Shown: one piece after another, positions 1,556-44,182 of the stretch
Numbering within the stretch: position 1 is the stretch's first letter
How the letters are laid out: each line of letters starts with the position of its first letter
DNA from: Candidatus Lustribacter sp.
GTDB taxonomy: Bacteria; Vulcanimicrobiota; Vulcanimicrobiia; Vulcanimicrobiales; Vulcanimicrobiaceae
Length of the DNA stretch: 54,064 nt
Assembly (NCBI GenBank): GCA_036008105.1
Contig: DASYOE010000392.1
Span: 1 to 54,064 of the forward strand
Reading direction: 5' to 3'
The notes under the pieces: generated by a model
The model's input: only the letters and a program-made list of their open reading frames with translations
Told to the model about the DNA's origin: nothing
Databases searched by the model: none
Program-made: the position numbers and the translations under genes

Positions 1556-4770
<3,215 letters not shown>

Positions 4771-12622: not shown

Positions 12623-13609
12623 GTGTCCGAGCCGGACGGCGAACTCCGCGACCTGACCTTCGCCGCCTTCCCCTCGCTGCTGCGGCCGGGCGACGTGCTC
12701 GTGTTGAACGAGACGCGGGTCATCCCGGCCCGCCTGCGCTTTGCCCGGGCCGGCGCCGGCGCGGGCGAACTATTGCTGCTTCGGCCGGCCGACCGCGCCG
12801 AGTTCGCGTTCGAAGCCCGGACCTGGTTTGCGCTCGCGCGGCCGGCGCGGCGGTTGCCGGCCGGAACCCGGCTGGAGATCGGCGGGGCCGGCGTGACGAT
12901 CGAGGGGGTCACGCCCGACGGGCAGCGGATCGTCCGGTTCGATGAGGACGTCGACCTGGCCGGGCTGCTCGCGCGCGCGGGCGAGTTGCCCCTGCCGCCG
13001 TACGTCGGACCCGGCGACGCGGCGCGCGCGGCCCGCTACCAGACGGTCTTCGCCCGCGTACCGGGCAGCGTCGCCGCCCCCACCGCCTCGTTGCATTTCA
13101 CCGAACCCGTCCTGGCCGCGATCGCGGCGCGCGGGATCGAGATCGTCCGCTTGACGCTCGACGTCGGCATCGGGACGTTCCGGCCGATGCGGCCCGGGCC
13201 CGTCGCCGCGCATCATATGCACGCCGAGCGCTACGCGATCGGGACGGAGGCCGCCGCAGCCGTCAACCGCGCCCGCGCCGGGGGCCGCCGGGTGGTCGCG
13301 GCCGGGACGACGGTCGTCCGGGCCTTGGAAGGGGCGGCCCTCGCCGGCGGCCCCGTTCCGGCCGGGGCCGGCGAAACCGACCTGTTCATCACACCGGGCT
13401 TCCGGTTCCGGGTCGTCGACGCGCTGCTGACGAACTTCCACCTCCCGCAGTCTACCTTGCTCGTGCTGGTGACCGCGTTTCTCGGTTACGAACGGACGCG
13501 CGCCGCCTATGACGCCGCGGTTACTCGAAATTACCGATTCTTTTCGTTCGGCGATGCCATGTTCGCCGAACGCGGCGACGGAAGGCCGAAGGAAGGCGAC
13601 CATGGGTGA
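12623..13609 (+). CDS. queA: S-adenosylmethionine:tRNA ribosyltransferase-isomerase
   Basis: 'VLVLNETRVIPARL', 'LPLPPYV', 'YQTVFA...GSVAAPTASLHF', 'AAGTTVVRALE', 'LLTNFHLPQSTLLVLV' and 'YRFFSFGDAMF'. 12623 (GTG) is only the first canonical start. The conserved N-terminal block 'DLDDAAAYAYDLPEDRIARTPAERREDAKLLV' is in frame upstream, back to about 12527. Confidence 0.93.
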   Translation: MSEPDGELRDLTFAAFPSLLRPGDVLVLNETRVIPARLRFARAGAGAGELLLLRPADRAEFAFEARTWFALARPARRLPAGTRLEIGGAGVTIEGVTPDGQRIVRFDEDVDLAGLLARAGELPLPPYVGPGDAARAARYQTVFARVPGSVAAPTASLHFTEPVLAAIAARGIEIVRLTLDVGIGTFRPMRPGPVAAHHMHAERYAIGTEAAAAVNRARAGGRRVVAAGTTVVRALEGAALAGGPVPAGAGETDLFITPGFRFRVVDALLTNFHLPQSTLLVLVTAFLGYERTRAAYDAAVTRNYRFFSFGDAMFAERGDGRPKEGDHG

Positions 13610-24357: not shown

Positions 24358-25275
24358 GTGAGCATGCGCATCGGTATCATCGGCGCCGGCGCGCTGGGGA
24401 CGCTCTTCGGTTACCGGCTCGCGCGCAGCAACGACGTGTCGATGCTCGAACGCCGCCCCGACGTCGTGAGCGCGGTGCGCGAACACGGGCTGCGCAGCGT
24501 CGACGGTAACGAACGCCGCGCGGTCACGATTTCCTCGTCGGCTCGCGACCTCTTCACGTCCAACGTCCTGTTCGTGTTCGTGCGCGCCACCGACACCATG
24601 CGGGTGCTGCGGCCGTTCGTGAACGAGCTCGACCCGTCGTGCGTGATCGTCTCGCTGCAAAACGGGATCCAGAACGAAGACGCGGTGAAAGCGGCGCTCG
24701 GGAGCAACGTGGCGCTGGTGCTGGGTGCCACGACGGAATCGGCCCTCACGCTGGCGCCCGGCAGCGCCGCGCCGGTCGGCACCGGCACGACGATCGTCGG
24801 CCCGGGCGGCGCCACGCCCGAGGTCTGCGCGCGGATCGCGCGGCTGTTGACCGATGCCGGCATGGCGGCATCGGTGGCTTACGATATCCGTCCGCACCTG
24901 TGGGGAAAACTCGTCGCCAACGCCGCGATCAATCCGGTCGCCGCGCTGCTCGACCGCCCCAATGGGATCATCCTCGAGGATACGAATGCGGGCGAGCTCG
25001 CGCGGTCGCTCGCGCAAGAGGCAGCGACCGTCGCGGGCGCGATGCGCATCGCGCTGCCGTTCACCGACCCCTGGAGCTACGTGCGCTCGATCGCCGAGCA
25101 GACCGCGGACCTGCGCAATTCCATGCTGGCCGATTTGACCGGGGGCGCGCAGACGGAAAACGATCACATCAACGGCGCGGTGGTGGCCGCCGGACGGCGC
25201 GCCGCCGTACCGACGCCTTACAACGACACCATCTTCCGTCTGATCCGGGCACGTGAAGCGGTAGCCCAAAAATAA
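24358..25275 (+). CDS. panE: 2-dehydropantoate 2-reductase (ApbA/PanE family)
   Basis: 'MRIGIIGAGALGTLFGYRLA' Rossmann N-terminus, 'LQNGI', 'WGKLVANAAINPVAALL' and 'SMLADL..G..TE.D.ING'. The start could instead be the ATG at 24364. Confidence 0.82.
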   Translation: MSMRIGIIGAGALGTLFGYRLARSNDVSMLERRPDVVSAVREHGLRSVDGNERRAVTISSSARDLFTSNVLFVFVRATDTMRVLRPFVNELDPSCVIVSLQNGIQNEDAVKAALGSNVALVLGATTESALTLAPGSAAPVGTGTTIVGPGGATPEVCARIARLLTDAGMAASVAYDIRPHLWGKLVANAAINPVAALLDRPNGIILEDTNAGELARSLAQEAATVAGAMRIALPFTDPWSYVRSIAEQTADLRNSMLADLTGGAQTENDHINGAVVAAGRRAAVPTPYNDTIFRLIRAREAVAQK

Positions 25276-36245: not shown

Positions 36246-37892
36246 TCATGCTATTATGGGCGGTTTCGCCCCGATCGCGCCGGCCAGAACCTCGACCGCA
36301 TCGGCCGCCGTGTCGCCGCGCCACGCGATGTGGTGGTCCGGGCGCACGAGCACTGCGGGCGCACCGTAGAGCTCGCGCACCTGCGGATCGTCCGAACGCA
36401 CGACGGTCAGCGGAAGATGAAGACGCTCCGCCGCGGCTCCCCATACGTCAGGTGGTGACGGCTCGAGCAACAGCAGGGTGAAGTCGCGGCCGAAGCGGTC
36501 GAGCAGCGAGCCGGTACCCGCGCGAACGTGCGGCGCGCGGGCACCGGGATATCCCGACGGCACGTAGCGGTTCGGCACATCGGGCGGCGGCGCTCCGGTT
36601 TCGCCGGCCACGATCGGGCTCGTGTAACGCACGCCCAATTGCAAGCCGGGAATGTTGAACTCGCTCGCAACGTGCGCGGCCAACGCCGCGCCCAGTTGCA
36701 CGCGCGCGGCATCGGCTTCCGCACCGTTCTGCTCGACCAGCGGCGTCACCGGAATGTGCCCGATGCTGTCGGCCATACTGCCCGCGAACGTCGTGTTGCG
36801 CAGCGCGATCGGGCGGCGCTCGGCCTCATAGGTATCGAGCAGCGATTCGGGCGCCCAGCCCTGCACGACGGCCGCGAGTTTCCAGCCCAGATTGACCGCG
36901 TCGTCGATGCTCGTGTTGTAGCCCATCCCGCCGGTCGGCGTGAAGAGATGCGCCGCATCGCCGGCGACGAGCAGCCGGCCGCCGCGAAACGCATCGGCGA
37001 CCAAGGCGTAGCCCGCGTGCCACGGGGTCTTCGCGATCAGGTCGTAATCGAACGGCGCACCGACGGCCGCCGCGAGCACCGCGCGTTCGTCGATGTCCTC
37101 GGGGGTTTGCGTTTCGGACATCTGAATCATCAGCACGAACGTGTCGACGCCGTCGATGCTGCACAGGAGCGCGCGCTGCTCGGGGTTCACCGCCCAGTAT
37201 TGCCACGCACGGCCTTTGCCGAGCACGTCGCACAGTTCGGACGAACGGAAATAGAGCGACAGCATCTGCCCGCCCATGAACTCTCGCTTAGCGTTGCCCT
37301 GTCCGCTGTATGCGGTTCCCATCGCGCGGCGCACGAGGCTGCGCGGGCCGTCGCAGCCGATCGCGTAGGCGGCGACGAGTTCCGTCGTCGCGCCGGTCCG
37401 CACGTCTTGCGCTTCAACCTGCACGTCCTCGCCCCGGTCGTGCACGGCGACGACGCGTTGACCGAAGCACATCCGCACGCTCGGGTAGCGTTCGGCCTGC
37501 GCCTTGAGAATCGGTTCGATGTACATTTGCTGAACGCGGTGCGGCAACTCCGGCGTCGGCCACGCTTCCTCACGGTAGTCGCCGAACACGACCTGCGCGG
37601 CCGCTTGGCTCGATGAGGGAATGCGAAAGCGCGTCAGCTCGTGTTTCGCCAAGCGCGTCGTGTAGATGATGTCCTGCGGATGATCGGGCGGCAGCCCGAG
37701 CGCGCGCACTTGATCGGCGAAGCCGCGCCGCCGGTAGTGTTCCATCGTTCGCGACGACGTGGCGTTCGCTTTCGGCAGCTGCGGCGGGCTGGTGTTTTCA
37801 TCGAACACCACGCACTCGACGCCGCGCACGCCCAGTTCGATCGCGAGCATCAGCCCGGCCGGTCCGCCGCCGACGATCGCAACGCCGTTCAA
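36246..37892 (-). CDS. FAD-dependent aromatic-ring monooxygenase (PheA/TfdB-like)
   Basis: 'VAIVGGGPAGLMLAIELGVRGVECVVFDE' (GxGxxG), 'GCDGPRSLVRR' and 'LVAGDAAHLFTPTGGMGYNTSIDDAVNLGWKL'. It also has the C-terminal thioredoxin-like extension typical of the phenol-hydroxylase group. Confidence 0.88.
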   Translation of the reverse strand: MNGVAIVGGGPAGLMLAIELGVRGVECVVFDENTSPPQLPKANATSSRTMEHYRRRGFADQVRALGLPPDHPQDIIYTTRLAKHELTRFRIPSSSQAAAQVVFGDYREEAWPTPELPHRVQQMYIEPILKAQAERYPSVRMCFGQRVVAVHDRGEDVQVEAQDVRTGATTELVAAYAIGCDGPRSLVRRAMGTAYSGQGNAKREFMGGQMLSLYFRSSELCDVLGKGRAWQYWAVNPEQRALLCSIDGVDTFVLMIQMSETQTPEDIDERAVLAAAVGAPFDYDLIAKTPWHAGYALVADAFRGGRLLVAGDAAHLFTPTGGMGYNTSIDDAVNLGWKLAAVVQGWAPESLLDTYEAERRPIALRNTTFAGSMADSIGHIPVTPLVEQNGAEADAARVQLGAALAAHVASEFNIPGLQLGVRYTSPIVAGETGAPPPDVPNRYVPSGYPGARAPHVRAGTGSLLDRFGRDFTLLLLEPSPPDVWGAAAERLHLPLTVVRSDDPQVRELYGAPAVLVRPDHHIAWRGDTAADAVEVLAGAIGAKPPIIA

Positions 37893-38380
37893 CCGTCGCT
37901 CGTTTCCGCGCCGGCTTCGATGGCGGTGCGCAGCGCGAGCAAGTCCGCTCGCAAGCGCACGTAATTCTTCGCTCCGACGATCTGCTCGAAATCGGCCTCG
38001 ATGCGTTCCGCCGCGCGGCGGGTTACCGTCATGAGGCGCCGTCCGCGCGCGGTGAAGCGCACGATCTTCGCGCGCTTGTCGGACGCGTCGGTCTCGAGTT
38101 CAACCAGGCCGAGTTGCCGGCAGTCCTCGACCAGTTGGCCCATCGCACCCTTCGTGACGCCGGCGCGCTCGGCCATGACGACGATGCGGGTGCCGCCGCG
38201 GTAGTCGATGTGCCGTAAGGCGTTGAGGTGAACCGCACGTACGTCCTTGAAGCCGGCCGCATGATAGCCCGCCAGCATCTGCGACTCGAACGCGAAAAAC
38301 GCGAAATGAAGTAACCGGCCGAGGTTGTTGTGACGCCACGCGTGCGCGGCGTCCGGCCCGAGCCCCTCGAACTCAGACAT
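37889..38380 (-). CDS. MarR-family transcriptional regulator
   Basis: 163 aa with a winged-HTH region: 'VMAERAGVTKGAMGQLVEDCRQLGLVELETDASDKRAKIVRFTARG'. 4-nt overlap with the monooxygenase gene. Confidence 0.88.
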   Translation of the reverse strand: MSEFEGLGPDAAHAWRHNNLGRLLHFAFFAFESQMLAGYHAAGFKDVRAVHLNALRHIDYRGGTRIVVMAERAGVTKGAMGQLVEDCRQLGLVELETDASDKRAKIVRFTARGRRLMTVTRRAAERIEADFEQIVGAKNYVRLRADLLALRTAIEAGAETSDG

Positions 38381-38395
38381 CGTTGCTCCTCGACA

Positions 38396-38411
38396 ATAGT
38401 ATAACTACTAT
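38396..38411. promoter_or_regulatory. operator-like palindrome ATAGTA-TAAC-TACTAT upstream of marR
   Basis: This perfect 6-bp inverted repeat with a 4-bp spacer lies in an AT-rich patch about 15-30 nt upstream of the marR start codon (38380). The position fits MarR autoregulation. Coordinates are +/-1. Confidence 0.45.
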
Positions 38412-38446
38412 ACCAATCTATCGGGCCCGGTCAAGGGCGCGGCGCC

Positions 38447-39055
38447 TTACTTCGTCGCGATCAGGTCGATCAGCGCGGAGGGCCCGCCGTGGCCTTCACC
38501 CTCTTGGATCTCGGCATCGTATTCGGTGATCTCCACCCGGCTGAAATCGCCGAAGCCGGCTTCGAGGTGCTCGCGCGTGTAGAGGCGCTCGAGATCGGCC
38601 GGACCGCCGGTGCCGAACTCCAGTTGGCGCGGCGGATAACCCTCGAGCAGAAGAAGCCCGCCGGGCTTGAGGGCGCGCCGGATACCGGCGAATTGCCGCA
38701 TGCGTTCGAGGGGCTGAGCGAAGATCGCGACGATTACGTCGAACTCGTCGGCCGGCCATTCCCAGGTCGAAATGTCGACCTGCAGCGTCGTGATCGTCAC
38801 GCCGCGCGAGGCCGCCAGCGCGCGGGCCTTGGTCTGGGCCCGAGCGGAGAAATCCATCGACACGACGTCGAGGCCTTGCTCGGCGAGCCACACGCCGTTG
38901 CGCCCTTCGCCATCGGCGATCGAGAGCGCGCGGCCGTGTTTTGGAAGCCGGTCTTTCTGTCGCGACAGAAAGGCGTTGGGCGCGGTGCCGAACAGGTAGC
39001 TCTCGGGAGCGTACCGCCCTTCCCAGCGCTCGAATTCGGCTTGGTTCGCGACCAT
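38447..39055 (-). CDS. class I SAM-dependent methyltransferase
   Basis: Met108 of ORF 38447-39376 is the start (TGATG junction with the FAH gene stop). Motif I is 'ALSIADGEGRNGVWLAEQG'. 'LKPGGLLLLEGY' follows. Confidence 0.8.
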   Translation of the reverse strand: MVANQAEFERWEGRYAPESYLFGTAPNAFLSRQKDRLPKHGRALSIADGEGRNGVWLAEQGLDVVSMDFSARAQTKARALAASRGVTITTLQVDISTWEWPADEFDVIVAIFAQPLERMRQFAGIRRALKPGGLLLLEGYPPRQLEFGTGGPADLERLYTREHLEAGFGDFSRVEITEYDAEIQEGEGHGGPSALIDLIATK

Positions 39056-40017
39056 CAGCGTTTCGCTACGATGTTCGCGGCGAGCGTGCCGATCTGCGGC
39101 GAGCGGTGCTCGACGTGGTCGCCGGGTTTCAGAAAACGCTCGGGCGCCGCGACACCTTCGGGCGAGCGCGGGCTCGAATCCGCCGCCGTTCCGGCCGCCG
39201 TCCCGCCCGAGATCATGTCGCCTGGATAGAACGTGAGGTCGGCCGAGAGATACTCGAGATAGTCCGCGAACGACATGATCATATCGCGCGTGTTGTAGGC
39301 TTGGCGGCGATCGCCGTTGACGAACGTTTCGACATCGACGTTGCTCGGGTCGATGTTCTCGCCCGCGACGATGCACGGCCCGACCGAATACGAGCCGTCG
39401 AAGTTCTTCGCCATCGCGTACTTGAAGTGCGCGTTGCCCTCGTTCTGGTCGCGAATGCTCCAGTCGCCGAACAACGTGACGCCCCAGACGTACGGCTTGA
39501 TGTCGCCCTTGAAGTCTTTGACGGTTTTGCCGAGGACGATCGCGAGTTCGCCCTCGTAGTCGAGGCGGTGCGTGCGCGCCGGATAGATGATGTCGCCGCC
39601 GAGCGGCGCCGCATCGCGACCGACCTTCCAGAAGCCCCAGATGCCGCGTTCGCGCAAGCGCTCGGTGATCGTCTTGATGTCGGCACCGGCGAACGCGGCG
39701 TTGCCCGTCCGCGCGGCCATCGCCGCGGTGTGGTCGGCGAAGTTACCGCCGGCGCATGCGATGCGCGCTCCCGGGACCTGCGGCGGATGCAGCACGGTGC
39801 CGGCCGCCGGCACGCCGCTGCTCGCCGCCGCGACCAATCCCGCCGCTTTGGTGAGCGCGGCGTCGCCGCCCTCGATGAAACTCTTCAGATCGGCCGCCAC
39901 CGGAGCGAGATCGACGATAAAATCGTTCTTCAGCGCGCCTACGCGCTTGTCGGGTCCATAAACGACAATTTTCACAAAACGCCGCGTTCGAAGGGGTTCT
40001 CCCAGCCCCTGCTCCAA
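39055..40017 (-). CDS. fumarylacetoacetate hydrolase (FAH) family protein
   Basis: 'DYEGELAIVLGK', 'GVTLFGDWSIRD', 'AKNFDGSYSVGPCIV' and 'FYPGDMISGGT'. The start is more likely the GTG at about 39975 ('VKIVVYGPDKR'), because the TTG at 40017 leaves only 32 nt before the divergent gene. Confidence 0.86.
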   Translation of the reverse strand: MEQGLGEPLRTRRFVKIVVYGPDKRVGALKNDFIVDLAPVAADLKSFIEGGDAALTKAAGLVAAASSGVPAAGTVLHPPQVPGARIACAGGNFADHTAAMAARTGNAAFAGADIKTITERLRERGIWGFWKVGRDAAPLGGDIIYPARTHRLDYEGELAIVLGKTVKDFKGDIKPYVWGVTLFGDWSIRDQNEGNAHFKYAMAKNFDGSYSVGPCIVAGENIDPSNVDVETFVNGDRRQAYNTRDMIMSFADYLEYLSADLTFYPGDMISGGTAAGTAADSSPRSPEGVAAPERFLKPGDHVEHRSPQIGTLAANIVAKR

Positions 40018-40049
40018 CGTAATCCGCCATCCTTAGCGGAGGAGGCTCG

Positions 40050-40982
40050 ATGAAGCGTTATCTGATCGTTCTCATGGCCTTGGCGCTCGCGTTGATCGCG
40101 GCGCCGGCGACCTCGCAAACGAAGGACAAGATCACGGTTGCGTTTCCGCCCGTCGATCCGGGCGCCGAAGTACTCTACGCCTACGACATGGGGTTCTTCG
40201 ATAAGGCGGGCCTCGACGTCACGTTGGACCCCTTGGGGAACGGCGGCGCCATCACGGCCGGCGTGCTCGGCGGCTCGATCGACATCGGCATCGCCAACGT
40301 AATCTCGATCGAGACCGCGCATACCAAAGGGCTGCCGCTGTCGATCGTTGCGGCGGGCGCAGCCAACGTCCGCAGCGCGCCGTCGAACGTGTTGATCGTC
40401 GCGAAGAACTCACCGCTGCAGAAGGCCAGCGACCTCAACGGAAAGATCGTCGCCACAACCCCGCTGCACGGAATCGGCGACTTGCTGATCTCGGCCTGGA
40501 TGGACAAGAACGGCGGCGATTCCACGACCGTGAAATATATCGAGGTACCGTTCCCGCAAGCCGCGGGCGTCGTGACGCAGGGCCGGGCCGACGCGTCGCT
40601 GAGCGTCGAACCGTTCATCACGCAATCGAAAGCCGACACGCGCGTCATGGCCGACCCGTTTGCCGTGCTCGGCGACAACTACCTCATCACCGCGTTCTTC
40701 GCGGCGTCGGCATGGGCACAAGCGCACCCGACGATCGTCGCCCGCTTTGCGGCGGTAATGCGCGAAACGGCGGATTGGGCCAACAAGAACCAAGCCAAGT
40801 CGGCCGAGATCCTGGCCAAGTATGGGAAGCTCGATCCGGACATGGTGAAGCAGACGATTCGCGCCCGCTATGCGACGACGCTCACGCCGGCCGAACTGCA
40901 ACCAACGATCGACACGGCCGCTCATTACAAGTATATCGACAACGGCTTTCCGGCCCAAGAACTGATTTTTCAAACCAAATAG
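40050..40982 (+). CDS. NMT1/THI5-like (NitT/TauT-family) ABC substrate-binding protein, paralog 1
   Basis: Sec-type signal peptide '[24 protein letters not shown]'. It shares blocks with the three paralogs: '[22 protein letters not shown]', 'HTKGLPL', 'DLNGK' and '[20 protein letters not shown]'. Confidence 0.8.
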
Positions 40983-40995
40983 AAGAAGTGACGAA

Positions 40996-41511
40996 ATGAA
41001 CGCACCGACCGAACGCGCCGTCCTCGCCGGCGGCTGTTTCTGGGGCATGCAAGATCTGATCCGCCGCCAGCCGGGGGTTATTTCCACCCGCGTCGGCTAC
41101 TCGGGCGGCGACGTGAAGAACGCAACCTATCGCAACCACGGCACGCACGCCGAGGCGATCGAGATCGTCTTCGATCCGAACGTCATCAGCTATCGGAAGC
41201 TGCTCGAATTTTTCTTCCAGATCCACGACCCGTCGACGCTCAACCGTCAGGGCAACGATCGCGGCACGAGCTACCGTTCGGGCATCTACTACACGAGCCC
41301 CGAGCAAAAGAGAATCGCCGAGGAGACGATCGCCGACGTCAACGCCTCCGGCCTCTGGCCGGGTAAGGTCGTCACCGAGCTGGCGCCGGCGGGCGACTTC
41401 TGGGAGGCTGAGCCCGAGCATCAGGACTACCTCGAGCACTACCCCAACGGCTACACGTGCCATTTCATCCGGCCCGATTGGAAGCTGCCGGTACGGGCCG
41501 AAGCCCGCTGA
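40996..41511 (+). CDS. msrA: peptide-methionine (S)-S-oxide reductase
   Basis: '[13 protein letters not shown]', '[28 protein letters not shown]', '[17 protein letters not shown]' and 'EHQDYLE'. Confidence 0.95.
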
Positions 41512-41524
41512 GCGTCCCCGGCCG

Positions 41525-42013
41525 GTGACCCCCGTCAACATCGAGCCCGTACCCGCCCCGACCGACGAACTGCGCGCGCTGATCTTCGAACTCGACTCCG
41601 AACTCGCCGTCGCCTACACCACCGAACAGATGCACGGGCTCACCCTGAACTCGCTGTTCGCCGGGCACATCCAGATGTTCATCGCGCGCATCGACGGCGC
41701 GCCGGTCGGCTGCGGCGGGCTCGCGCTATTCGACGGCTACGCCGAGGTCAAGCGCATGTTCGTGCGCCCGGCCGGCCGCGGCAGCGGCGTCGCGCAAGCG
41801 CTGCTCGCCCACATCGAAGACGCGGCGCGGACCGCCGGCGTTCCGTGGCTGCGGCTCGAGACCGGCATCCGTCAGCCAGCCGCGATCCGGCTCTACGAGA
41901 GCGCGGGCTTTCACCCGTGTGCGGCCTTCGGCGCCTACACGACGATGGCGCCCGCGGCGATCAAATTGAGCCTGTTTTACGAGAAATCACTGCGTGATCC
42001 GGGGGCCGGATAA
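41525..42013 (+). CDS. GNAT-family N-acetyltransferase
   Basis: Acetyl-CoA binding motif A: 'VKRMFVRPAGRGSGVAQALLAHIEDAARTAG'. 'LETGIRQPAAIRLYESAGF' follows. Confidence 0.85.
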   Translation: MTPVNIEPVPAPTDELRALIFELDSELAVAYTTEQMHGLTLNSLFAGHIQMFIARIDGAPVGCGGLALFDGYAEVKRMFVRPAGRGSGVAQALLAHIEDAARTAGVPWLRLETGIRQPAAIRLYESAGFHPCAAFGAYTTMAPAAIKLSLFYEKSLRDPGAG

Positions 42014-42064
42014 CCCGCCCGCCCCTTCTATTTATATCACATAATGTTGATTTCATGATATTGT

Positions 42065-42092
42065 TACCGGGCAATACTAGTACTTCCCGGTA
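42065..42092. promoter_or_regulatory. 28-bp near-perfect palindrome (operator-like) in AT-rich promoter region
   Basis: TACCGGG-CAA-TACTAGTA-CTT-CCCGGTA, with 12 of 14 base pairs self-complementary. It lies in the most AT-rich gap of the window and ends 40 nt upstream of the ATG at 42132. Confidence 0.5.
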
Positions 42093-42131
42093 TGCAGGTC
42101 GGCGGCACTGAGTCCGGCGGAGAGCGCAGGC

Positions 42132-42575
42132 ATGCGCAACTTTGGCGGGCTCTTGGCCGCCCTGATCGTTCTTCTCGCCGGCACGTTGCCGGCGCGGGCC
42201 ACCGGGGTGGTTCACATCCAGCAGAAAGACGGGTCGGTCAAAACGTATGCCGGCGTCAACATCGCGCTGGATCCAAGCAGCATGCGGCTCACCACGAGCG
42301 ACGGGGTCGGCACGCTGTACATCGGCAAAGCGGCCTGCACGGCGATCGGGCAATTGTTGAAATGCGAGCCCTACGATGCAACCTACATCGCGCACGACGT
42401 CTCGACGCACATCGAGCTCATCGACGGTACGGCCTGGCTGAATCCGTCGAAGAAAACGCAATCGATTCCGGGCTCCAACCGCAAGCTCGCGCCGCTCGGG
42501 GTGACCATGACGATGCGCAGTAAGGCCGGGACGACCGTGACCCTTTCCGGCACGGCCGATGTGGTGGGCAAATGA
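42132..42575 (+). CDS. secreted hypothetical protein
   Basis: 147 aa. It has a signal peptide 'MRNFGGLLAALIVLLAGTLPARA', a beta-looking mature part and two Cys ('KAACTAIGQLLKCEP'). Its stop overlaps the next start (ATGA). I recognise no family. Confidence 0.6.
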   Translation: MRNFGGLLAALIVLLAGTLPARATGVVHIQQKDGSVKTYAGVNIALDPSSMRLTTSDGVGTLYIGKAACTAIGQLLKCEPYDATYIAHDVSTHIELIDGTAWLNPSKKTQSIPGSNRKLAPLGVTMTMRSKAGTTVTLSGTADVVGK

Positions 42576-44182
42576 GCACGCAACGAGCGGCGGCGGCCGT
42601 CTTGGTCTTTTTCCTCGCGCTCGCACCATCGGGCGGGTTCGCCCGCGGTTTCGGTGGCGGTGGCGGTGGCGGTTTCAGCGGCGGTGGTGGCGGCTTCCGC
42701 GGGGGCGCCGGCGGAGGCGGTGGGTTCGACTTCCGCGGTGACGGGGCGCCGGGCGGCGCGAGCCGCTCCGTGCCGCAGGGCGACTTCAGCCACTCGAGTA
42801 CCGGTCCGGCCGGCACGTCGCGCACCACGACCGGGAACGTCTCCAACGGGGGCTACACCCGAACGACGACGGCGACGAACGGCGCTGCGACGCGCCAGTC
42901 CACCGGCACCTACAACGCGAACGGCAATTACCAGCACAACAGCACCGGCTCTACTGCGAACGCGTACCACAGCAGCGCCACGAGCGGTAACGTCTACAGC
43001 GGAAACTACAACCACAGCGCAACGGGTAACAACCCCTACGGTTCTTACAACACCTCCGGCAGCGGCAACACCCACTCGAATACGTACTACGGTACCGGCA
43101 ACGCGACCAATCAGTACGGCACTACCTACCACACGGCCACATCCTACAACAACGGCTACGTCTACCACGGCGCCGCGGTAAGCAACCCGATGTACTACGG
43201 CTATCCCGCTTGGGGCTGGAACGCCGGGGTCGCGTGGTATCCGGCACCGATCTACTACGGGGGCGCCTTCTGGGGCGCGTACGCCGTCGGTGCCGCGACC
43301 GCGATCGCGTTCGGATCCGTCGTTGCAGCGAACAACGCGACGATCACGTCGTACCAAGTCGAACCGCAGAGCCCCGGCGCGAAGCTCCTGACGAGCTACA
43401 AACTCACGCAGACCCAATGCGGCGCGCCGAATCTCGTCGTCATCTATGGTCCGAACGACAGCGTCATCTGTGCCCAGCCGAATCAACTCGTGACTGCCGG
43501 CAACTATAGCGTCGACCCTACGACGTTGACGATCGTCTCCGAGAAAGCGGCAGCGGCGGCGCCGGATGCGGTTCCGCCGGCGCCGCTGGCCGGTTCCGGC
43601 TCACCGCTTGTCGCGATGGCGGCCGGGGAAACCCGCAACTATCGCGTCACCTCGCAGACCGCCTCACGCGACGGCAACACATCATCGAACCACTACGTGC
43701 GCATTACGCGTATTGCACCCGGACAGTTTTCGGTCGCCATCGATGGGGCTCCGGGCGTCGACGTCAGCGTTGGTCCGGGCGGAAACGAAAGCGCGTTGCC
43801 GCAAGCAACCAAAACGGCGCTCGCGCCCTTCTTCCAGATCGGCTTGCTGATGCACGCCGCACCGCAACCGGTCGCGTCGAACAGCGCATGGGGAGCGACG
43901 ATTCCGGTCGTGGTGAAGCCGGACACGGATATGGTTCCGGTCAGCGTCAGCGTGAGTCAGTTCGGACCCACCGGCGGGGCGGTCACGGCTGCCGGTCAGA
44001 CCTCGGTTGACGTCTCACCCGGAGTGCGAACGATTCCGGCCACCATCAGCGTCAACGCGAAGCTCTTCTTCAACCAGAATCACGAGCTGACGCAAGGCAG
44101 CGGCTCGGTCACCGTCGACGCGCACTTGCGCCTCGACCGCACCGACCGCACCACCAACAACTGGACGGTGTCGCCGGCCTAA
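42572..44182 (+). CDS. exported hypothetical protein with Gly-run and N/S/T/Y/H-rich low-complexity domain
   Basis: 536 aa. Domain order: hydrophobic N-terminus; Gly/Phe/Arg run (aa 21-62); polar pseudo-repeats (aa 63-205); Tyr/Trp-rich stretch; one hydrophobic segment (aa 231-253); ~280-aa C-terminal domain. The opposite-strand Pro-rich ORFs are mirror artefacts of the GGN codons. Confidence 0.65.
   Translation: MSTQRAAAAVLVFFLALAPSGGFARGFGGGGGGGFSGGGGGFRGGAGGGGGFDFRGDGAPGGASRSVPQGDFSHSSTGPAGTSRTTTGNVSNGGYTRTTTATNGAATRQSTGTYNANGNYQHNSTGSTANAYHSSATSGNVYSGNYNHSATGNNPYGSYNTSGSGNTHSNTYYGTGNATNQYGTTYHTATSYNNGYVYHGAAVSNPMYYGYPAWGWNAGVAWYPAPIYYGGAFWGAYAVGAATAIAFGSVVAANNATITSYQVEPQSPGAKLLTSYKLTQTQCGAPNLVVIYGPNDSVICAQPNQLVTAGNYSVDPTTLTIVSEKAAAAAPDAVPPAPLAGSGSPLVAMAAGETRNYRVTSQTASRDGNTSSNHYVRITRIAPGQFSVAIDGAPGVDVSVGPGGNESALPQATKTALAPFFQIGLLMHAAPQPVASNSAWGATIPVVVKPDTDMVPVSVSVSQFGPTGGAVTAAGQTSVDVSPGVRTIPATISVNAKLFFNQNHELTQGSGSVTVDAHLRLDRTDRTTNNWTVSPA
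42632..43186 (+). repeat. in-frame low-complexity / degenerate repeat region (GGN run, then ~14-codon polar pseudo-repeats)
   Basis: The DNA run ggtggcggtggcggtggcggtttcagcggcggtggtggcggcttc... encodes GFGGGGGGGFSGGGGGFRGG. Units such as STGTYNANGNYQHN / STGSTANAYHSSAT / SGNVYSGNYNHSAT follow. Confidence 0.6.

Follow-up and report, generated by a model that had tools for sequence, protein, structure and literature searches.

The window, a stretch of 54,064 nucleotides, contains a strictly conserved, translationally coupled module of two genes, and their products represent a pair of previously undescribed protein families. The novelty is one of distance from described families. Both ORFs lie on the + strand, at 42132-42575 (147 aa) and 42572-44182 (536 aa), and the stop codon of the first overlaps the start codon of the second (ATGA). 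A sequence-only reading of this DNA had reported these coordinates, the overlap, the compositions and the Cys pairs, all of which were confirmed on the sequence. The parts of the two genes are as follows (a slash within a motif marks the cleavage site).

42132 to 42575, + strand: partner gene, encoding a 147-aa, all-beta protein (predicted to be exported) with a signal peptide of about 23 residues ending A-R-A/TG and the invariant Cys pair C69/C78
42572 to 42643, + strand: signal peptide of the large protein, residues 1-24, with R5 in the n-region, a hydrophobic core and the cleavage-type sequence G-F-A/RG
42644 to 42757, + strand: Gly run with spaced F/R, residues 25-62; true low complexity, variable in length and predicted to be disordered
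42719 to 42742, + strand: GGFDFRGD, residues 50-57, an instance of the motif GGF(D/N)(F/L)xx(D/E) that is conserved family-wide
42779 to 43186, + strand: polar N/S/T/Y/H/G domain, residues 70-205, predicted to be a hairpin-repeat array of 11 antiparallel-type beta-strands joined by turns of 2-5 residues, several of them N-G
43187 to 43267, + strand: Trp/Tyr/Pro/Gly motif, residues 206-232, NPxY..WGWNxGxxWxPxPxY(W/Y)GG
43268 to 43333, + strand: Ala/Gly-rich hydrophobic segment, residues 233-254, TM-like here and not across the family
43334 to 43540, + strand: small alpha/beta domain, residues 255-323, holding the invariant pair C283/C300 and closing the family core on its C-terminal side
43541 to 44182, + strand: clade-specific add-on, residues 324-536 plus stop, an Ala/Pro linker followed by a beta-rich domain, with a partly confident model

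The partner gene was found directly upstream of the large gene, on the same strand, in all 75 related loci with enough upstream DNA. These included the low-GC (38-44%) freshwater loci. The 4-nt overlap (ATGA or GTGA) was present in 61 of the 75, so that the gene pair claimed from the sequence alone is real, coupled and conserved. The stretch read as low-complexity and the gene pairing both occur in relatives, contrary to what would have refuted the earlier reading. The module was present in at least 366 metagenomic loci, and clustering of the profile matches at 50% identity gave 179 clusters, each with one representative. The pair is distributed over Eremiobacterota and one low-GC freshwater lineage. 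It is syntenic among near relatives. Flanking genes vary from locus to locus, the 147-aa partner being the sole constant neighbour of the large gene, and no recurring mobile-element context was seen around the loci. No conserved neighbour, domain or ligand-binding signature indicated a specific role.

Upstream of the partner gene, four features were located.

42026 to 42085, + strand: AT-rich intergenic stretch, 28% GC, the probable promoter region of the operon
42065 to 42092, no strand assigned: 28-bp palindrome with the halves TACCGGGCAATACT and AGTACTTCCCGGTA, 12 of 14 positions paired
42078 to 42099, + strand: 22-nt block T[AG]GTA..GC....T....AGGT, found conserved 5' of the operon in the closest relatives and overlapping the right palindrome arm
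42119 to 42124, + strand: Shine-Dalgarno-like GGAGAG, read from the sequence, 7 nt 5' of the ATG of the small gene

The 118-bp gap had been described as the most AT-rich part of the window. As a whole it has 53% GC and is not the window minimum; the description fits its 5' part, 42026-42085, which is the lowest-GC 60-bp stretch in the 54 kb (the runner-up has 38%). The palindrome and its 12 pairs were reproduced, and its distance to the ATG was corrected from 40 to 39 nt. The window contains three palindromes of equal quality, against 0.5 expected in locally shuffled sequence, indicating that the palindrome is real but only modestly above chance. When the upstream regions of the window and the three nearest loci (L008, L010 and L011) were aligned to define the 22-nt block, the right arm alone fell within the conserved block and the left arm was not conserved. 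The dyad is therefore not kept in orthologous promoters, and the proposal that a dimeric regulator binds it has no comparative support. More distant loci have a different upstream motif. The motif found in other clades, TTYGGGATA, was not enriched in the window. Folding of the palindrome region as an RNA hairpin was no better than that of shuffled sequence (z -0.63), and scans found neither a sigma-70 consensus on the + strand nor a terminator in the gap.

Both products showed the features of Sec signal peptides in a hydropathy heuristic, namely a positive n-region, a hydrophobic core (N-terminal KD19 of 1.7-2.0) and conserved small residues at -3/-1, in agreement with the signal peptide of the small protein and the hydrophobic N-terminus of the large one noted earlier. 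G-F-A24/R-G is nearly invariant in the large protein, as the alignment of A24 indicated, and A21-x-A23/T24-G25 of the partner is invariant. Each protein has one invariant Cys pair (C283/C300 and C69/C78 in the large and the small protein, respectively). From these features we infer that both proteins are exported and disulfide-bonded. The one member of the phylum in culture has an envelope of the typical Gram-negative kind (PMC9758169; see also PMC6664022). Two other export types were considered and ruled out: lipoprotein export, as the cleavage site has no Cys, and Tat export, as there is no RR motif.

Neither protein, nor any of 52 relatives, matched an entry of Pfam, NCBIfam, PADLOC or PHROGs. 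Sequence and profile searches of the PDB returned no match below E 0.48. Matches to fractalkine and IL8-like proteins (E 0.8 and 0.15, respectively) were at chance level. Foldseek searches with the model of the large protein against PDB and BFVD gave no match at E 1e-3 or better and no beta-solenoid match, and the partner model had no match in the PDB at the same threshold. The profile, PDB and Foldseek searches thus upheld the earlier statement that the large protein matches no recognised family, as neither product corresponds to a curated family or a solved structure. Small envelope proteins of the glycine-zipper or YXWGXW type were also tried, and 52 members gave no Gly-zipper or WXXGXW Pfam match at E up to 1.

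The part that defines the family is a C-terminal module of about 125 aa, which we call the foot. It consists of the Trp-rich motif WGWNxGxxW...YWGGGFWG, the hydrophobic segment and the 70-aa Cys-pair domain. Most of the 179 representatives match profile positions 177-303 only, which correspond to the foot, and the regions N-terminal to it belong to different sequence classes in different lineages. The sequence-only reading had treated this module as secondary, and the profile matches place it at the core of the family. Its identity across lineages of 38-72% GC is 43-75%. The Trp-rich motif and the Cys-pair domain are the two best-conserved segments (72% and 75% identity, respectively). The motif is conserved in the 179 representatives; W216, N217, W222, Y228, G231, F233, W234 and G235 are invariant, and the FWG that completes YWGGGFWG forms residues 233-235, at the start of the hydrophobic segment. 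The Cys-pair domain (residues 255-323) was modeled with a pLDDT of 83-96, and a profile built from the low-GC lineage matched it at E 1e-39. The Trp-rich motif is 72% identical and yet has a pLDDT below 30 in the monomer model, suggesting that the foot may depend on a partner. One locus (L014) has an additional copy of the C-terminal module further downstream that lacks a start codon.

Two further parts of the large protein differ in how widely they occur. GGF(D/N)(F/L)xx(D/E), with G50, G51, F52 and D53 nearly invariant, was also found in distant lineages and is present in three copies in L014 and P0149. The 213-aa add-on at residues 324-536 was found only in P0001-P0003 and L008. A search with this region alone returned only an identical 128-aa fragment and missed the add-on carriers P0001-P0003, probably owing to a word-index limit. 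The region behind the hydrophobic segment had been read as a single beta-looking domain of about 280 aa with one Cys pair. The Cys pair was correct, and the region divides into the 70-aa Cys-pair domain and the 213-aa add-on. In other members, C-terminal add-ons weakly resemble the periplasmic families DUF6515 (E 0.0013) and Metal_resist (E 0.16).

The AlphaFold model of the partner had a pLDDT of 85 and contained 11 strands. Almost all of its top Foldseek matches were LolA, LolB or LolA-like proteins, at values that are not significant (E 0.01-0.06, TM 0.30 or less). The partner gave no LolA, LolB or LppX-type profile match in Pfam or NCBIfam, and a profile search of the PDB gave nothing below E 1.5. 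LolA/LolB-type half-barrels, whose fold is an unclosed barrel of 11 beta-strands, are periplasmic carriers that hold hydrophobic groups. The partner resembles this superfamily in being small, predicted to be exported and all-beta with 11 predicted strands, and shielding the hydrophobic segment of a co-expressed protein would be an analogous role. It differs from the superfamily in having no helical lid, and neither its predicted, conserved disulfide nor its PYDAT motif is a LolA feature. Profile-profile comparison indicated that partner and foot are unrelated (probability 2%).

We tentatively favor, at somewhat less than even odds, a reading in which both proteins are exported by Sec, contain disulfides and together form a structural unit of the diderm envelope, encoded by a self-contained operon, with a foot, a spacer and a binding partner as its components. 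The large protein would begin with a basic, Gly-rich tail bearing GGF(D/N)(F/L)xx(D/E). The tail would be followed by a spacer whose class depends on the lineage: Pro-rich rods, N/G/R repeats or, in the clade of the window, a folded array of hairpins with 11 strands. The foot would come last, with its Trp-rich motif, Ala/Gly-rich hydrophobic segment and 70-aa Cys-pair domain, and the protein of the window would bear the 213-aa domain as an extra at its C terminus. The small all-beta partner, whose translation is coupled to that of the large protein, most likely attaches to the foot and shields the Trp-rich motif and the hydrophobic segment. The module would have a structural and not an enzymatic role, as a periplasmic or cell-surface tether or scaffold, which is suggested by the architecture alone.

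TonB with its Pro-rich rod, TolA and Lpp are periplasm-spanning tethers with sequence-variable spacers. The large protein is like them in combining a conserved terminal module with a spacer that varies in length and class, and the spacers of P0198, P0164 and L061 carry (K/R)P-type Pro-rich repeats. The likeness is architectural only, with neither homology nor a Pfam match to TonB_C or any other family.

The Tyr/Trp/Pro stretch (206-232) and the hydrophobic segment behind it (233-254) were as first described. This arrangement raises an unlikely alternative, a type I membrane protein with a cleaved signal peptide. The Gly run and the beta-array would be periplasmic, residues 233-254 would cross the inner membrane, the Trp-rich motif would sit at the membrane interface, the Cys-pair domain and add-on would be cytoplasmic, and the partner would serve a signalling device as its periplasmic ligand or co-receptor. 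The 22-residue Ala/Gly-rich segment, preceded immediately by Trp/Tyr-rich sequence, does resemble a TM helix behind a membrane-proximal region. The KD19 of the segment is 1.5-1.6 in the window protein (maximum 1.59, close enough to the TM threshold for a type I anchor to be conceivable in this clade), and AlphaFold placed a short helix at 240-247. Hydrophobicity is not conserved across the family, however. Among 150 distinct relatives the median KD19 was 1.46; 39 reached 1.6 or more, but 20 fell below 1.0 and 38 had charged residues (D/E/K/R) in the segment, which in some relatives has shrunk to about 20 polar residues or is absent. No K/R cluster follows it either (0.24 K/R in the next 15 residues in these relatives). 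The domain that follows the segment carries an invariant Cys pair, a feature of exported domains, and the C-terminal add-ons of other members weakly resemble periplasmic families, both of which argue against a cytoplasmic location. Judged by hydropathy, the segment is not a conserved membrane span.

A widely distributed envelope system, modeled on the layout of the vertebrate proteins PrP and Shadoo, seems improbable to us. The large protein has its parts in the same order as PrP and Shadoo: behind the signal peptide come a basic RGG/Gly-rich region, a Gly/Trp-rich motif, a hydrophobic segment rich in Ala and Gly and finally a small one-disulfide domain (the disulfide being predicted in the large protein). 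In this reading the partner would act as a dedicated chaperone, a small beta-barrel that keeps hold of the Trp-rich and Ala/Gly-rich insertion segment until the target layer is reached; once there, the segment would either insert into a membrane leaflet or oligomerise. The periplasm or cell surface of Eremiobacterota and of the low-GC freshwater lineage would be shaped by a hydrated layer, possibly of gel-like or cross-beta character, built from the polar array or the low-complexity spacer, and the array of the window's clade would be a folded beta-domain recently derived from a low-complexity repeat. The likeness is one of layout only, as there is no sequence or fold similarity and the organism and compartment differ. 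In addition, the window protein lacks a GPI anchor, and no obligate partner gene accompanies PrP.

The spacer itself had been read as an amyloid- or prion-like low-complexity domain. Residues 63-205 contain 18% T, 15% S, 15% G, 15% N, 10% Y, 10% A, 5% H, 3% V and 1% D, with no L, I, E, K or M. Across 116 homologues, residues 70-205 showed 100% occupancy, 58% identity to the window residue, many invariant positions and no indels. AlphaFold modeled them as 11 regular strands with a pLDDT of 87-96; the underlying alignment had depth only in a single subfamily (about 60% identity), and the beta-array is a predicted fold. Both faces of all 11 strands are polar. The degenerate repeats that had been noted are present, with a measured period of 13 (z 3.8) and 26 (z 4.4) rather than about 14 residues. 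The apparent low-complexity stretch is thus, according to the model, a conserved and folded beta-sheet domain, and a prion-like or disordered LCR was not upheld for it. Only the Gly run is truly low in complexity. Residues 21-62 are 62% Gly, and the run at 25-62 had an alignment occupancy of 57% and a pLDDT below 50; it alone showed the indel-rich, disordered character of a prion-like LCR. It also holds the only substantial DNA tandem repeats of the large gene, the other arrays (42860-42892 and 44134-44152) being short and low-scoring.

The equivalent region in other lineages consists of Pro-rich rods (P0198, P0164, L061 and L082) or N/G/R repeats. At this position L033 carries tandem repeats of NGNTYNN(A)H that are near-perfect, and in some lineages the tandem repeats are N-rich and alternate as N-V-N. 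The folded 11-stranded array of the window's clade probably arose from low-complexity repeats.

These repeats bear on the amyloid or prion-like reading, in which the polar repeats would assemble outside the cell into a gel or cross-beta fibres, with the small protein as chaperone or nucleator. We regard it as quite improbable. It would account for the N/S/T/G/Y-rich composition, the 13/26-residue repeats, the predicted all-beta structure, the N-V-N alternation elsewhere and the co-expression of a small, predicted exported protein. The large protein is like curli CsgA/CsgB in its predicted export, its richness in Gly/Asn/Ser/Tyr and its short imperfect repeats, predicted to form strand-turn-strand units, and small accessory proteins are a further likeness. 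However, positional conservation without indels and a confident monomeric strand-turn-strand model fit a globular fold, and N plus Q amount to just 18% of the polar region. No Curlin repeat or other Pfam match was found at E up to 1 in the window protein and 42 members. No csgDEFG-like genes accompany the window pair, and no CsgB, CsgG/CsgE/CsgF-like or Fap genes lie beside the loci, where neighbours are unrelated and variable. The best-conserved part of the family is the foot and not the repeats. Pro-rich rods, which cannot form amyloid, hold the same position in P0198, P0164, L061 and L082, which is hard to reconcile with an amyloid function of the whole family.

Among known folds, the predicted array is closest in layout to beta-hairpin arrays such as MORN repeats, the ApoB100 beta-belt and the single-layer sheet of OspA; it shares their strand-turn-strand units, with a hairpin period of 26 residues. 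The ApoB100 beta-belt (prob 0.99, rmsd 5.5 A over 147 columns) and viral MORN-repeat proteins gave the best local superpositions, both with E above 1e-3. The array has no sequence or Pfam match to MORN, and the ApoB belt is amphipathic whereas the array is polar on both strand faces. An integral outer-membrane beta-barrel was ruled out, as both strand faces are polar with no L or I and 3% V, and Foldseek barrel matches had E 0.1 or worse.

A secreted toxin or bacteriocin with a Gly-rich, translocation-type N-terminus and the small protein as its immunity or export partner is very unlikely: the compact two-gene layout, the disordered Gly-rich N-terminus, the variable C-terminal add-ons and the downstream copy in L014, which recalls orphan toxin cassettes, would suit it, but the C-terminal module is conserved rather than polymorphic, the partner has its own signal peptide and is encoded upstream, there was no PADLOC, PHROG or toxin-family match, and the pair is syntenic in near relatives with no recurring mobile-element context.

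Eremiobacterota, of which a single species has been cultured, are abundant in acid soils, peat and cold deserts. To our knowledge, almost nothing is known of their envelope proteins. The module is an obvious starting point for the definition of two new protein families and, possibly, of a new envelope component. The clade of the window is also a test case for a folded beta-hairpin domain arising from a low-complexity repeat, as sister lineages still bear near-perfect tandem repeats or unrelated spacers at the position of the array.

The two ORFs that the sequence-only reading had called were found at their positions on the + strand, with the ATGA overlap it described. Features of the locus are listed below.

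Features of the gene pair and its upstream region
42065-42092, 28-bp palindrome with 12 of 14 pairs complementary
42132-42575, + strand, partner gene (ORF), 147 aa
42572-44182, + strand, large gene (ORF), 536 aa, ATGA overlap with the partner gene
Residues 206-232 of the large protein, Tyr/Trp/Pro stretch, from composition
Residues 233-254 of the large protein, hydrophobic segment, from composition

A word-index search returned 15 homologues of the partner, and a partner profile found a copy in every related locus with room for one. The partner gene was immediately 5' of the large gene on the same strand in 75 of 91 loci; the remaining 16 all have <710 nt of sequence 5' of the C-terminal module. 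The partner stop and the large-gene start overlapped as ATGA or GTGA in 61 of these 75 loci, and the rest had gaps of 0-22 nt. Both N-termini had Sec-type features, with small residues conserved at -3 and -1. In the phylum's sole cultured member, the envelope consists of an inner membrane, thin peptidoglycan, and an outer membrane with LPS (PMC9758169); genes for BamA and LPS synthesis are present in genomes of the phylum (PMC6664022). Because the envelope is diderm, export reaches the periplasm at least. We conclude with high confidence that the two exported proteins form a new module whose genes are strictly paired and translationally coupled. Of everything in the window, it had rightly been picked as the best candidate for an envelope system not yet described.

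The pair is single-copy in the window and has ordinary flanking genes: upstream, one for a GNAT acetyltransferase; downstream, a DoxX gene in convergent orientation. Its neighbourhood was conserved among the nearest relatives only. In the related locus L008, the upstream order is MarR, methyltransferase, FAA hydrolase, NMT1-type binding protein, MsrA, and GNAT; L010 has this order minus the NMT1-type gene. ORF sizes at 37889-42013 of the window match the L008/L010 order, and Pfam confirmed only GNAT among them. Between GNAT and the pair, L008 has four additional genes (LVIVD-repeat, TetR, UDP-glycosyltransferase, and RNase T2) and L010 has one, indicating that the intergenic site 5' of the pair is a variable spot. 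In two distant loci (L003:4213-5547 and L005:4207-5424), the end of a Flavodoxin_2/FMN_red-domain gene with a long C-terminal extension overlaps the partner start, and the pair may be co-transcribed with this redox gene. Fusions were also seen. In the database protein P0177, no spacer is present and the partner runs straight into the hydrophobic segment and Cys-pair domain, and in P0018 both reading frames are fused via a frameshift; these may be assembly or annotation artefacts.

Neither protein matched Pfam, NCBIfam, PADLOC, or PHROGs, and scans of 42 close and 20 distant relatives gave no family match. PDB sequence and profile searches with both proteins gave a best E of 0.48. The partner model (pLDDT 85, pTM 0.73) had 11 beta-strands after a disordered signal peptide. 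Foldseek found no significant match for it; almost all top matches were LolA/LolB-type half-barrels (E 0.01-0.06, TM <= 0.30). The large-protein model, built on a 117-sequence alignment, had no significant Foldseek match in PDB or BFVD. The Cys-pair domain (residues 255-323; 43334-43540) gave recurrent, non-significant chemokine-like matches (Pfam IL8, E 0.15 in 2 of 42 members; PDB fractalkine chains, E 0.8), which we took as chance. Neither sequence nor fold placed the pair in a described family or system, and it is in this sense distant from known kinds.

Homologues of the large protein numbered 119 at 90% clustering, and all organism-named ones were Eremiobacterota (Cybelea, Aquilonibacter, Baltobacteraceae, or Vulcanimicrobiaceae). 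A typical homologue has ~300 aa and corresponds to the first 60% of the window protein: signal peptide, Gly run, polar low-complexity stretch, aromatic stretch, and hydrophobic segment, stopping shortly past the Cys pair. The polar stretch is therefore conserved, and residues 324-536 are an add-on, common only to P0001-P0003 and a 512-aa protein of L008. Other members had different add-ons, one weakly DUF6515-like (E 0.0013) and another helical and weakly similar to Metal_resist (E 0.16). A word-index search with residues 324-536 missed P0001-P0003 despite ~70% identity in that domain, and word-index negatives for short or divergent domains call for caution.

A profile search of 1.84 billion representatives gave 179 clusters at E <= 1e-3, most aligning to profile positions 177-303 only. 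These positions hold the Trp-rich motif, the hydrophobic segment, and the Cys-pair domain, together called the foot here; the polar stretch had been mistaken for the core. Low-GC loci from freshwater metagenomes (38-44% GC) also carried family members, and a profile from them alone recovered the window protein at E 1e-39. The N-termini of distant members shared a signal peptide, an RGGGG-type run, and the motif GGF(D/N)(F/L)xx(D/E), followed by lineage-dependent sequence, Pro-rich rods in some and N/G/R tandem repeats in others. The comparison thus points, with high confidence, to a module in which the C-terminal foot and the N-terminal motif are conserved and the spacer varies by lineage. In the window this motif lies at 42719-42742 (residues 50-57), 3' of the Gly run, and it is kept family-wide, the low-GC lineage included. 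L014 and P0149 have three copies of it, a pattern as for a repeated binding or processing site. Directly 3' of the full gene in L014, a 118-aa stop-to-stop segment (3300-3653) is a second Trp-rich/hydrophobic/Cys-pair module (E 4e-42) that lacks both a start codon and a signal peptide, perhaps a tandem copy in decay or a silent cassette.

The hydrophobic segment of the window protein is close to the TM threshold, as a type I membrane protein would have it, but this property was not conserved. Among 150 distinct members, the median KD19 was 1.46, with 20 below 1.0, and 38 had charged residues inside the segment. In some, just ~20 polar residues separated FWG from the Cys domain. The 15 residues after the segment held only 0.24 K/R, and the Cys pair C-terminal to it was invariant. 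These features favour full export of the large protein, and a membrane-spanning topology is unlikely.

A recount agreed with the composition described earlier for the large protein. Gly makes up 62% of residues 21-62; residues 63-205 are rich in T/S/G/N/Y/A/H and have no L, I, E, K, or M; the aromatic stretch, the hydrophobic segment, and a single Cys pair (C283/C300) follow. Residues 63-205 repeat with periods of 13 (z 3.8) and 26 (z 4.4) residues, and substantial tandem repeats at the DNA level were found in the Gly run only. This composition had led to a prion-like assignment, which did not hold. In the model, residues 70-205 (pLDDT 87-96) form an array of 11 strands of 7-10 residues, most 9-10, linked via 2-5-residue turns, several of them N-G. 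Across 116 homologues, their alignment occupancy was 100% and identity to the window residue 58%; the Gly run, disordered in the model, had 57% and 34%. A functional amyloid is accordingly improbable. The best local superpositions of the model were antiparallel sheets and barrels (e.g., the ApoB100 beta-belt, barrel-assembly intermediates, and MORN-repeat proteins), with no beta-solenoid among them in PDB or BFVD. A membrane barrel was excluded for the array because its strands are polar on both faces. L033 has near-perfect NGNTYNN(A)H tandem repeats at the equivalent position, suggesting that the array arose out of such repeats. This widespread, strictly coupled pair would show a route from a low-complexity repeat to a predicted folded domain.

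The Trp-rich stretch was modeled at pLDDT <30, yet its 72% identity places it among the best-conserved parts. It is followed by a short helix (residues 240-247), the alpha/beta Cys-pair domain (249-323, pLDDT 83-96), and the add-on with partial confidence. We propose that the partner attaches to the foot and shields the Trp-rich and hydrophobic segments there; the spacer would fix a distance or make a hydrated layer. Judging by its architecture, the module would have a structural role, as a periplasmic or surface tether or scaffold. This mechanism as a whole is proposed tentatively, as a real possibility. A toxin-immunity pair is very improbable, and a sizeable minority share is left for explanations outside those considered.

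The palindrome at 42065-42092 was present with the 12 of 14 pairs reported. Two others of this quality lie at 12741-12768 and 24849-24876, making three in the window versus 0.5 in locally shuffled sequence. The 118-bp gap had been described as the AT-rich extreme of the window; this is true of its 5' part (42026-42085, 28% GC, the lowest 60-bp stretch), but the whole gap has 53% GC. RNA folding of the palindrome region was no better than that of shuffled sequence. In the three nearest loci, conservation was limited to a 22-nt block (42078-42099) comprising the right arm and the bases next to it on the 3' side. The left arm was not conserved, and the proposed dimeric regulator on the 28-mer gained no comparative support. 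A dedicated control element for the pair is plausible. In other Eremiobacterota clades, TTTT(T/C)GGGATA(C/G) lies 5' of the partner gene, followed ~21 nt on by TA(C/G)A(C/G)TA, with 7-9 nt left between its end and the partner ATG (L056, L070, L091, L038, L085, L042, L059, L052, L001, and L067). The window's clade lacks this motif, and the window showed no enrichment of it. The spacing to the ATG resembles the geometry of a leaderless transcript. In L056, L070, L091, and L085, an inverted copy of the first element (TATCCCAAAA) lies 7-16 nt upstream.
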